Sequence record: PQ571289
Reading direction: 5' to 3' (one strand)
Length of the DNA stretch: 64,000 bases
From: Escherichia phage EF1-1
The notes below the pieces were generated by a model, which was not told the DNA's origin, ran no database searches, and saw only the letters and a list, made by a program, of their open reading frames with translations. Each line of letters starts with the position of its first letter. Position 1 is the first letter of the stretch. Shown piece by piece: positions 55,420 through 57,888 of this stretch. The position numbers and the translations under genes were made by a program.

Positions 55420-57639
55420 ATGTCAACTACAATTACTAATTTACCAGAAACATCAAAAGTTAATGGTTCAGATTACCTGGTTTTAGATCAACCTGATAAA
55501 ACTGTTAAAAGCACAGTTTCCAACTTTCTTACTGACACTGGGGTGGTTTTAGCCACCCAGTTGAAAGATACAGATGGAGCAGATTTAATACAATCCTCAA
55601 ATGGTAATACTGTTCAGGAAGAGTTGAATAACAATCTTCTTAATGATCGTGAACAGTGGCGTCGTAGTCTTGCTGAGGCAGGGTTAACACTTGTTGATGG
55701 TAGCTTTGAGGAGGGTGCTACATTAAATAATAATACTGATGCTGTCTGGTACATAGCGGGTGCTCAGTGCTACACATGGGGGTCTGGTTTCCCTAAAGAT
55801 GTACCACCTAAATCAACCCCTACATCAACTGGTGGTATTGGCCCTAGTACGTGGGTTAGTGTTTCAAGCAAATCACTACGTCAAGATATCGCGTCAAATT
55901 CTGGTTTTGCTTTGATTGGCCATTGCCCTGGTGTTTCCGCGCTGCGAGGTATTGAGCCTGTTTCTAACGGGCAGAAAATTTTGCTGTCTGGTCACACAGA
56001 GGGTTACAACTACGGCGGCGGCGAGTTCACAGCAGTGTTGGATGGCAGCACGTACACTGACGATAACGGGAACTACATCAAAACAACTGGCGGCGCTGTC
56101 TGGATTCGTGAAAAGAAAACTCACGCGTATGCCGCTGACTATGGTTTCATAACCAACGATGCCAGTAAGGCCACCAGTAATGCTGCCGCTATTGTTGCTG
56201 CGGCAAAGTTTGCCTTTGAAAACGGAACCGATGTTTGGCTGCCTTTTGGCAAGAAATATATTGACGATGTTGTTTTAAATCACCCTGTGACAATCTGCGC
56301 CAACATGACGGTGTTTGGTTCTTCATTGGTAAGCCGTGAACAGGAATCTGATATCTTACATATTGGTAGTGGTTATGCGTTTGATTTCACGCCACAGGTA
56401 AGACCAACAACACCGTCAAGCGAAAATCCTGTTATTGATGGCCCTGCACTAATCGGCCTTTCAATTCGCGGCACAAATAACGGGAAGGCAGGATGGCGCG
56501 TAAACAATTCCACCGTGGTTGGAAATGAAAGCTACGCAAGACGTAACGTGACAATCAAAAACTGTCAGGTTTCCGGTTATCATTCCGGTTACGGTTACGA
56601 AATGTACTGGACGTTCACGAATAAACTCCATGACGTAATTGTGTGGGATTGCGCAGTCACTTATTATATTCGTTCATGCTATGCAACGGATCACTTTGGT
56701 TGCATTTATGAAAATAGTTCTTACGGCTGCCTTGCCATAAACTGCTATTCAAACAATCATTATGGTGGTGCTGTTGAAGGCATCAGATCGATGTCAGCTC
56801 ACACAAAACCGGCAGGTTATGACGAAAACGGTAATTCACCGCTGTCTTATGACGGAATTGGATTCCGTGTTCGCGGTGGTAACACCACATTCTATGGTGG
56901 ATATGTAGAAGCAAACCGCATTCACGCACAGATCGAGAACGCTGGACGATTTGCGTTTAGCGGAACCTATATAAACAACACAAACACAGAAAGAATGGGG
57001 CACGGTATTTCTGGTGAATTGCGTGTTACACACTGCAACATACAAGGTGATCCTTCGATTGGCACATGGGTGCAGGCGTCAGCGTCGCTTCATTGCTCTT
57101 ATGCTGAAATTCACTCAAATGCTTATGTTTCAGGGACTACAAAACCAAACACCGTGCCAAACATTGCGTCTGTTGGTGAGTTCGATGTCTATGATGGAAC
57201 CATTTCTGACAGCAACGGGGCAAGACGTGTTCGCCTCGGTCAGGATTTTCAAACTGGAGGATATCAGACAAACGGTGGTGTGCCGCGCGAAACATACTCT
57301 GAAATATTTGCGACAAGGGTTGTTAATGCTGGTAATGGTTCTGCTGACAGAACGGTTGATATCAGCGCACTTGCCACTGTCACAGGGCAAATAACAGCAC
57401 TTCAAAGCGCTGGGACGCTGACGTTTACAAATACAAATACAGCAATCGCAAAAGAGGGTAGGGATCTGTGTTTTGTTATCAATGCTTCTGGTGCGTGTTC
57501 GTTAGTTTTTGGTTCCGGGTTCCGCATGGTGAGTTCATCACCAATAAGCCTGAAAAACGCTCAAACAGCCGTTATCGAATTTAGATCTCAAGGTAACAAA
57601 TATTATCAAAAAGGGCCTGTAAACATTATGGTGACGTGA
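55420..57639 (+). CDS. tailspike/tail fibre protein with GC-rich distal domain
   Basis: 739 aa; AT-rich N-terminal 160 codons, then GC-richer part with repetitive Gly/Asn/Thr beta-strand-like segments. Confidence 0.55.
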   Translation: MSTTITNLPETSKVNGSDYLVLDQPDKTVKSTVSNFLTDTGVVLATQLKDTDGADLIQSSNGNTVQEELNNNLLNDREQWRRSLAEAGLTLVDGSFEEGATLNNNTDAVWYIAGAQCYTWGSGFPKDVPPKSTPTSTGGIGPSTWVSVSSKSLRQDIASNSGFALIGHCPGVSALRGIEPVSNGQKILLSGHTEGYNYGGGEFTAVLDGSTYTDDNGNYIKTTGGAVWIREKKTHAYAADYGFITNDASKATSNAAAIVAAAKFAFENGTDVWLPFGKKYIDDVVLNHPVTICANMTVFGSSLVSREQESDILHIGSGYAFDFTPQVRPTTPSSENPVIDGPALIGLSIRGTNNGKAGWRVNNSTVVGNESYARRNVTIKNCQVSGYHSGYGYEMYWTFTNKLHDVIVWDCAVTYYIRSCYATDHFGCIYENSSYGCLAINCYSNNHYGGAVEGIRSMSAHTKPAGYDENGNSPLSYDGIGFRVRGGNTTFYGGYVEANRIHAQIENAGRFAFSGTYINNTNTERMGHGISGELRVTHCNIQGDPSIGTWVQASASLHCSYAEIHSNAYVSGTTKPNTVPNIASVGEFDVYDGTISDSNGARRVRLGQDFQTGGYQTNGGVPRETYSEIFATRVVNAGNGSADRTVDISALATVTGQITALQSAGTLTFTNTNTAIAKEGRDLCFVINASGACSLVFGSGFRMVSSSPISLKNAQTAVIEFRSQGNKYYQKGPVNIMVT

Positions 57640-57841
57640 TTTTACCATCATGTGAACCGGCACAATTTGTTATCAAAATTTAATTTAGCAGGTACATTGT
57701 GGCATTTATGACGATATGCACTAATTACGGCTTCAAGCGCATGTCATCGCCATGTGATAAAATGATGAAAACATATCGTAGCAGGGTTAATCTTGTCTTT
57801 AGTTACTATCGTACTAACTCAAAGTGTTGTCACTACCACTG

Positions 57842-57867
57842 CAAGCCCCTCCAAAGAGGGGCTTACT
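57842..57867 (+). other. perfect hairpin AAGCCCCTC-CAAA-GAGGGGCTT without U tract
   Basis: 9-bp stem in the 250-bp non-coding gap after the tailspike. Confidence 0.35.
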
Positions 57868-57888
57868 TAGAAAAACAAAGAGGTTGTT

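Follow-up and report, generated by a model that had tools for sequence, protein, structure and literature searches.

We analysed a 64,000-nucleotide (nt) stretch of DNA from Escherichia phage EF1-1 (sequence record PQ571289), referred to below as the window and numbered from its first letter, with a focus on a tailspike gene whose distal part has very probably been exchanged as a cassette. The window comes from a phi92-like myophage (Stephanstirmvirinae, nearest Phapecoctavirus) with a guanine-plus-cytosine (GC) content of 0.39, and its virion genes lie on the + strand from ~28 kb onward. A first-pass annotation had described a 739-codon tailspike gene, a rise in GC from about 55900, a 250-bp gap after the stop codon and a hairpin within that gap. 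The 739-codon open reading frame (ORF) is present, and the gap measures 249 bp (57640-57888), the stop ending at 57639 and the next ATG starting at 57889. The 9-bp hairpin with a CAAA loop also exists, but it occupies 57843-57864 and not 57842-57867. The gene sits in the conserved receptor-binding locus of the Stephanstirmvirinae, 3' of an N4 gp65-like gene, in the slot taken by annotated tailspikes in phages UP17, ZCKP1, Ro121c4YLVW and PHB05. The features of the locus are as follows, with lengths of proteins in amino acids (aa) and GC1, GC2 and GC3 denoting GC content at the three codon positions:

55420..57639, + strand: tailspike gene, 739 aa (ORF list, translation, a PF18668 match at E=3.5e-14, and synteny with UP17, TSP7_1, ZCKP1 and Ro121c4YLVW)
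55420..55863, + strand: anchor (particle-binding) region, residues 1-148, GC3 0.26, with 88-95% DNA identity to 87 phi92-like phages
55696-55866: PF18668 TSP1/gp66 N-terminal domain, residues 93-149 (E=3.5e-14; 53.1 bits against a cut-off of 25)
55700..55863, + strand: left crossover zone, homologous to close relatives but diverged, from identity in 100-nt bins
55864..57636, + strand: putative exchanged distal module, residues 149-739, GC 0.457, GC3 0.40, absent from DNA matches in phage records and with homologues on other anchors
55912..56175, + strand: sub-segment of highest GC3 (0.57; codons 165-252) from change-point analysis, corresponding to the widely shared neck domain
57640..57730, + strand: allele-specific proximal part of the gap, from alignments with relatives, PaulScherrer and PHB05
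57731..57888, + strand: conserved non-coding spacer of 158 nt, the candidate right crossover arm, ~99% identical in Phapecoctavirus relatives
57843..57864, + strand: hairpin AAGCCCCTC-CAAA-GAGGGGCTT with a 9-bp stem, 24 nt 5' of the next ATG
57889..58197, + strand: 102-aa gene, a free-standing version of the N-terminal D1 domain of CBA120 TSP1 and G7C gp63.1 (phmmer against the PDB; PHROG tailspike N-termini)

Comparison with related phages showed that, in the closest of them, the proximal part of the tailspike gene alone is conserved. UP17, TSP7_1, ZCKP1 and Ro121c4YLVW are 97-98.6% identical to the window from 48420 or 51562 to exactly 55863, and the same identity resumes at 57731 in UP17, ZCKP1 and Ro121c4YLVW, and at 57690 in TSP7_1, to run on to their ends. 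Between 55864 and 57730 none of these phages yields a DNA alignment to the window despite the near-identical flanks, and their tailspikes differ in length (688 aa in UP17, 688 in TSP7_1, 745 in ZCKP1 and 762 in Ro121c4YLVW, against 739 here). Close relatives thus carry unrelated interiors between near-identical flanks, the pattern of a cassette exchange. The same boundary held across a broader set: a megablast search of the gene and gap against 50,697 GenBank phage records returned 87 records, none of which matched the gene beyond its first 444 nt, although some had a second matching piece in the gap. The end-points of homology among these records cluster at gene nt ~165-186, ~361, ~413-416 and ~438-444.

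The edges of the exchanged interval are graded. Identity to the close relatives is 97-100% up to ~55700, drops to 71-94% in 55700-55863 and is then lost; over that same zone, podophage U1G and a prophage locus encoding a homologue of the module (P0002, below) have 75-77% DNA identity to the window. On the right-hand side the crossover lies inside the gap, at ~57731, and 57690-57730 is a diverged version of the relatives' sequence. Such decay of identity at both edges places the crossovers within the PF18668 coding sequence and the intergenic spacer, and suggests that the incoming DNA came from a phage with the same two arms.

A separate search with the distal part recovered the module on unrelated N-termini. 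At the DNA level it had no match beyond gene nt 444 in the GenBank phage records, and tblastn against these records gave matches at residues ~150-230 only, those to Kuttervirus and phiV10 tail fibres (50-60% aa identity) covering just the neck. In a search of 5.8 billion proteins, the identical protein (P0001) was found only in read-archive assemblies. Nine proteins, however, share the last ~580 residues at 55-60% identity over the whole alignment (59-65% for the best local alignments) while having mutually unrelated N-termini, and overall, no fewer than six unrelated anchors carry the module in other phage types. The carriers of homologues include the following:

P0002: prophage of a temperate myophage, beside an MBOAT acyltransferase gene
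P0003: podophage with an SU10-type adaptor, the module lying 3' of a Calx-beta domain
P0004: prophage with Arc and Bro-N genes
P0005: four-tailspike cluster on a 158-kb Kuttervirus-like contig
P0007: P22-like prophage at the bio operon of E. coli, fused to the P22 head-binding domain PF09008 (58% identity over the whole alignment, 65% locally)
P0010: 72.7-kb podophage with an SU10-type adaptor and portal

An HMMER scan of 1.84 billion representative proteins indicated that the beta-helix body is shared by about eight clusters at 50% identity; the neck, comprising the first ~100 residues of the module, was widespread in the same scan. Neither the distal module nor its P0007 and P0002 homologues had a megablast match in 5,426 complete E. 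coli genomes, and patterns derived from the alignment found no relative in 185,579 species-representative genomes (GTDB), so that host serotype and donor cannot be inferred from genome matches. At the P0002 locus (L004 8206-10657), the tailspike gene is followed on the opposite strand by a gene for an MBOAT-family acyltransferase and a 332-aa gene; together with the spike, these neighbours may form a pair in which they modify the O-antigen (serotype conversion).

We also found the locus almost unchanged in a second genus. One refuting observation put forward by the first-pass annotation was conservation of the whole gene from end to end in relatives. Such conservation does occur, in the metagenomic contigs L015 and L016; one of these belongs to another genus, where end-to-end conservation is itself evidence of transfer. 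That contig, L015, is a 56.6-kb Justusliebigvirus (W22-like) assembly from Logan SRR23253305, which matches Justusliebigvirus W22 at 97.7-98.5% identity to either side of the locus. It shares one block with the window:

55364..58190, + strand: block common to the window and L015, 99.75% identical (7 differences in 2827 nt)

Outside this block the flanks of L015 are only 73.7% (51426-55250) and 75.8% (58210-61320) identical to the window. The block covers the tailspike gene, the gap and the 102-aa gene; on the right it ends abruptly where the 102-aa gene stops, and its left edge falls in the last ~100 nt of the upstream gene. These data point to a very recent transfer of the block between genera, provided that the automatic L015 assembly is not chimeric. 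The N-terminal part of the block is 88-95% identical to Phapecoctavirus phages, whereas its match to W22 is at 76% and confined to the first 128 nt, and from this Phapecoctavirus-type N-terminus we infer that the transfer ran from Phapecoctavirus to Justusliebigvirus.

The 102-aa gene that travelled with the tailspike gene in L015 encodes a protein ~90% identical to residues 1-95 of CBA120 TSP1 (4oj5, E=3e-47), with a further match to G7C gp63.1 (4qnl, E=3.7e-43). It is variable among relatives: UP17 and W22 share an in-frame deletion of 159 nt, the 5' half has diverged in PaulScherrer, and PHB05 retains the last few codons only. Its product could be an adaptor or the decaying remnant of a former tailspike.

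As for the protein, tailspike modules set which surface polysaccharide, and hence which strains, a phage attacks. An AlphaFold2 (AF2) model and domain annotations divide the distal part of this tailspike as follows:

residues ~160-235: neck domain, PF27114 'Phage_tail_beta', as assigned in precomputed annotations
residues ~240-590: right-handed parallel beta-helix (AF2 model)
residues ~640-739: C-terminal beta domain

Within the model, short repeated strands extend over residues 270-590, with predicted local distance difference test (pLDDT) values mostly between 70 and 90. A Foldseek search of the PDB placed CBA120 TSP2 (6w4q, 5w6p) and TSP4 (5w6h), Klebsiella K2 depolymerases (7vz3, 7lzj, 8iq5), Pantoea WceF and Acinetobacter tailspikes at the top, each at probability 1.0 and a template-modelling (TM) score of 0.3-0.4. 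The model supports a right-handed parallel beta-helix fold, but at TM scores that are only this high. Sequence matches to solved structures end at residue ~234-266, the neck matching TSP2 and TSP4 (6w4q at E=2.5e-31, 5w6p and 5w6h), and for the beta-helix body no solved structure is related in sequence. Judging from the model, the protein appears to be a polysaccharide-specific depolymerase, presumably enzymatic and assembling as a trimer, with residues ~149-739 most probably responsible for binding and cleaving one particular enterobacterial O-antigen or capsule.

We next consider the gap, the right-hand boundary of the exchange. UP17, TSP7_1, W22, Ro121c4YLVW, PaulScherrer, PHB05 and podophage U1G all carry a CCCCGC-TTCG-GCGGGG hairpin, with a UUCG tetraloop, directly 3' of the tailspike stop. 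The window lacks it (57640-57700, compared with L002 5925-5965, L011, L012, L014 and L023 7875-7905), and it was evidently lost with the cassette swap. The hairpin that the window does contain is a stable, GC-rich stem-loop with a folding energy of -16.5 to -16.7 kcal/mol (z = -3.5 against dinucleotide shuffles), followed by UUACUU and then by the ribosome-binding site AAAGAGG (57877-57883). Hairpin and ribosome-binding site together are homologous to the 50-nt spacer between two tailspike genes in Kuttervirus SS9 and in FSL SP-058, in which the same stem (GCCCCTC/GAGGGGC) encloses a TTAG loop and is followed by TTTTTT (SS9) or TTCTT (FSL SP-058). The hairpin is part of the downstream gene's leader and no part of the module that came in.

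Whether this hairpin nonetheless works as the Rho-independent terminator of the tailspike gene is doubtful, though this is the alternative that we take most seriously. Its stem is GC-rich and stable (-16.7 kcal/mol, z = -3.5), its homologue in SS9 is followed by TTTTTT and stands directly after a tailspike stop codon, and, with the CCCCGC-TTCG-GCGGGG hairpin missing from the window, it is the sole candidate left. Against this, the tail that follows it here, UUACUUAG, is not a U-tract, and 203 nt separate the hairpin from the stop codon but only 24 nt from the next start, an arrangement in which the downstream genes on the same strand would need read-through. With so degenerate a U-tract it would probably terminate weakly, if at all.

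A second possibility concerns the spacer as a whole, which, with its hairpin, might be held at ~96-99% identity by purifying selection, either as a promoter with a structured 5' leader or as a small RNA. Its identity exceeds that of the neighbouring coding DNA: counted from the alignment, it is ~98.7% in W22, where the flanks are at ~76%. In U1G, a Gamaleyavirus (Schitoviridae) podophage whose spacer is likewise flanked by a tail gene and a 107-aa 'tailspike' ORF, it reaches ~96%; the figure for the 57694-58041 match as a whole, part of the spacer included, is 87%. An extended -10 element resembling TGnTAAAAT can be read at 57755-57763, and the stem of the hairpin is invariant across homologues while the loop varies (CAAA versus TTAG). 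We nevertheless regard selection on a functional element as unlikely. Promoter and terminator scans called neither a sigma-70 promoter nor a terminator on the + strand of the gap; Rfam gave only chance matches below threshold (CRISPR-DR53 at 20 bits, STnc470 at 16 bits); folded in its entirety, the gap is unexceptional (z = -1.86); and there was no sequence variation from which covariation could be assessed. In U1G, identity stays high through the first ~100 nt of the 102-aa gene and then decays, which looks like a tract left by recombination and not like the effect of selection on non-coding DNA. PaulScherrer does without the spacer, its gap being 53 nt long, and no more than 26 phage records had a match anywhere in the gap, compared with 87 for the tailspike gene. 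Scans of IMG/VR for the hairpin junction and for the spacer returned PD06 and FSL SP-058 only, both already present in the phage search.

From the alignments, spacer and hairpin are therefore read as a conserved junction derived from the leader of a TSP1-type gene and now serving as the right-hand homology arm; a regulatory role of the spacer is possible in addition. A more speculative extension, to which we give still less weight than to selection on the spacer, would treat the stretch from 57731 to ~57990 (spacer, hairpin and TSP1-D1 leader) as a portable cis-acting junction that promotes exchange of modules between phage families. Its retention in Stephanstirmvirinae, Gamaleyavirus and, partly, Kuttervirus might then reflect service as a recombination linker common to tailspike cassettes, as their regulatory leader, or as both. 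If true, it would be an active element of exchange rather than a passive remnant of past transfers.

A GTG-initiated ORF of 72 aa at 57699-57917, overlapping the spacer and the start of the next gene, was rejected as a gene: a 1-nt indel in TSP7_1, W22 and U1G causes the aligned ATG frame to stop after 19 codons, and UP17 lacks a start. PHB05 contains a direct duplication of ~210 bp comprising the tailspike end, the CCCCGC hairpin and a 32-aa ORF (L022 8550-8760 and 9140-9350), whose copies flank a small membrane-protein gene.

The compositional break that first drew attention to the gene is real and of moderate size. In 300-nt windows, GC is 0.31-0.39 before 55750, 0.50-0.51 at 55750-56200, then 0.42-0.48, and 0.38-0.40 after 57550; the GC-rich runs cited in the first-pass annotation lie at 56014-56025 and 56131-56144. 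The distal 1776 nt have a GC content of 0.457 against a window mean of 0.390 (standard deviation 0.021), a value that none of 1174 non-overlapping windows of the same length equalled, so that nowhere else in the 64 kb is an equally long stretch as rich in GC. Codon analysis traced the non-uniformity to synonymous sites: GC1/GC2/GC3 is 0.49/0.47/0.26 over gene nt 1-444 and 0.49/0.48/0.40 over the remainder. Since the shift occurs only at third positions, the break is a synonymous-site signal and not an amino-acid effect. The best GC3 change-point by likelihood is codon 164 (nt 55912; permutation p = 0.013), and a second, at codon 252 (nt 56176; p = 0.027), marks a fall from 0.57 to 0.38. Other Phapecoctavirus alleles at the locus show a smaller rise in GC3, from 0.26-0.29 proximally to 0.32-0.38 distally.

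The composition is also constant from carrier to carrier. Members of the module family have a GC content of 0.435-0.459 and a distal GC3 of 0.39-0.41 in every carrier, at loci whose GC content is 0.39, 0.47, 0.48 or 0.50. The module thus keeps a composition of its own, which appears GC-rich in a phage of 39% GC and GC-poor in prophage loci of 48-50% GC.

The GC rise might have no historical meaning, arising from a beta-helix rich in Gly, Ala and Thr or from codon optimisation in a well-expressed structural gene. High GC2 in tail genes of the window (0.39-0.51) and the probable capsid gene (GC3 0.416, GC 0.468) are in keeping with this, but GC1 and GC2 are equal in the two parts of the gene and GC3 alone changes, codon bias linked to expression would act on the first 148 codons too, and the comparative data show a physical replacement independently of composition. 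We therefore consider this explanation highly improbable. Two other stretches of the window are GC-rich: 37542-38963, which covers the probable capsid gene, and 28851-30626, the richest 1776-nt segment outside the tailspike gene (0.452); no ORF of at least 100 aa is listed between 28430 and 31452.

Weakest of all, and scarcely credible here, is the idea that the distal part diverged in situ by rapid mutation under host-range selection without any replacement: co-evolution experiments do often find point mutations in receptor-binding domains (PMC11414711), but alleles of 688, 745 and 762 aa against 739 aa with no DNA alignment inside 98%-identical backgrounds, occurrence of the module at 55-60% protein identity on P22-type, Kuttervirus-type and other anchors, and an identical copy in another genus all speak against it.

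The account that best explains the data, to which we assign a probability of about 0.9, is that of a modular tailspike whose distal module has been swapped by recombination between conserved arms. It bears out the horizontal exchange proposed at first, through flank identity, the unrelated anchors and the block in a second genus. Under this account, the N-terminal anchor would fix the tailspike to a multivalent baseplate apparatus, and the distal module would be drawn from a pool of receptor-binding modules moving among very different phages. Because a module from such a mobile pool keeps its own composition, its insertion would leave a compositional break within the gene. Exchange would proceed by homologous recombination, with the coding sequence of the anchor domain (~55700-55863) as the left arm and the spacer (from ~57731) as the right arm. 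At least three nested events appear to be visible: the module was joined to a PF18668-type anchor, at ~codon 150-165, in an older fusion; one allele replaced another among Phapecoctavirus genomes; and, very recently, the entire block (55364-58190) moved between Phapecoctavirus and Justusliebigvirus. The hairpin would then be the conserved inter-tailspike hairpin, a terminator in Kuttervirus, that precedes a reading frame of TSP1-D1 type.

Several observations weigh against parts of this account. The GC3 change-point statistics are moderate (p = 0.013 and 0.027), and a GC3 of ~0.40 is matched by a few resident genes such as the probable capsid gene (0.416). Composition changes at 55912, whereas the crossover judged against the closest relatives is at ~55700; it lies ~160 nt 5' of the GC break, identity already being reduced within 55700-55863, and composition alone would misplace the junction. 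No donor nearly identical to the distal module turned up outside the Stephanstirmvirinae, where DNA identity is 66-70% at best. The AF2 model is of medium quality, built from an 11-sequence alignment, with a mean pLDDT of 67 and TM scores of 0.35-0.39 to its best matches, and neither catalytic residues nor a substrate were identified for the tailspike. Finally, the hairpin lacks a proper U-tract, its tail being TTACTTAG, and the terminator scan made no call there.

The wider neighbourhood is a receptor-binding cluster, of which the following members flank the features described above:

50373-53249: 958-aa tail protein
53258-55411: N4 gp65-like 'non-contractile tail sheath' protein with an N-terminal Calx-beta domain (PF23844 + PF23845, E=8e-78), directly 5' of the tailspike gene
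3' of the gap: the 102-aa gene, then an 80-aa membrane protein and baseplate genes
from 62521: colanidase-type tailspike, partial, running off the end of the window

The N4 gp65-like gene (53258-55411), together with the matches to U1G, indicates a tail-appendage block common to Schitoviridae and Stephanstirmvirinae. Further upstream, at ~27200-28100, the sign of the GC skew flips and gene orientation changes from the - strand to the + strand, marking a divergent transcription boundary.

For the partial tailspike at the window end, a distal rise in GC had likewise been claimed. GC3 does reach 0.44 in the bin at 63721-63870, but earlier bins are mostly low, with values of 0.24-0.32 in seven of the eight 150-nt bins over 62521-63720 and 0.42 in the bin at 62671; with the ORF cut at 64000, the rise rests on the last ~280 nt at most. 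The claim is thus weakly supported. This may be the same kind of boundary, of which little sequence is visible. The region is 97-98% conserved in UP17 and TSP7_1. The rise at 63721-63870 stands just 3' of a TSP1-D1/D2-like anchor (residues ~229-369) of this colanidase-type tailspike.

As a cleanly resolved natural swap with both arms mapped and its block recurring in a second genus, the locus is useful as a template for engineering phi92-like "Swiss-army-knife" phages, and a rare beta-helix family without a solved relative may target an unstudied O- or K-antigen. What is new here is a rare, uncharacterised beta-helix allele within a well-resolved nested mosaic; the analysis adds a map of the two arms, a history of nested events, the finding that the module's composition does not change from carrier to carrier, and the nearly identical block in another genus. 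The mechanism of exchange is the ordinary, well-described route of host change in such phages and involves no new principle.

Schwarzer et al. (2012) reportedly described the multivalent adsorption apparatus of phage phi92, and Latka et al. (2019) are said to have described modular depolymerase receptor-binding proteins in Klebsiella phages. Exchange of receptor-binding domains at conserved N-terminal domains is known for Ackermannviridae tailspikes, including sharing with Phapecoctavirus Ro121c4YLVW (PMC11414711, PMC10791037); recombination in conserved 5' domains has been proposed as the mode of exchange, and exchange of tsp genes has been demonstrated by engineering (PMC11414711). The multivalent adsorption apparatus of phi92-type phages is likewise known (PMC11984140).

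Set beside these systems, the locus resembles CBA120 TSP1-TSP4 and the branched complexes of G7C gp63.1/gp66, with which it shares the PF18668 domain, the neck match to TSP2/TSP4 and the closest beta-helix fold; the inter-gene hairpin, ribosome-binding site and TSP1-D1 reading frame of CBA120/Kuttervirus are also homologous to those of the window. It differs in that its carrier is a Stephanstirmvirinae myophage with another anchor (residues 1-92), and in that TSP1-D1 is here a free-standing 102-aa gene and not the N-terminus of a tailspike. With the phi92 apparatus (Justusliebigvirus/Phapecoctavirus) it has in common the locus, the gene order, the phage group and several co-expressed tailspikes or fibres, including the colanidase from 62521 onward, whereas the distal allele of the window is absent from the 50,697 GenBank phage records and occurs only in read-archive assemblies. 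The P22-type tailspike, a head-binding domain joined to a beta-helix endoglycosidase, is linked to it through the homologue of the distal module fused to PF09008 in a P22-like prophage, but anchor and virion context differ and no DNA relationship above 70% was found. Finally, the modular depolymerases of Klebsiella phages show the same combination of a conserved anchor and a swappable depolymerase, and the K2-specific enzymes 7vz3, 7lzj and 8iq5 are among the best fold matches, although their sequence identity to the tailspike of the window is only 13-16%.

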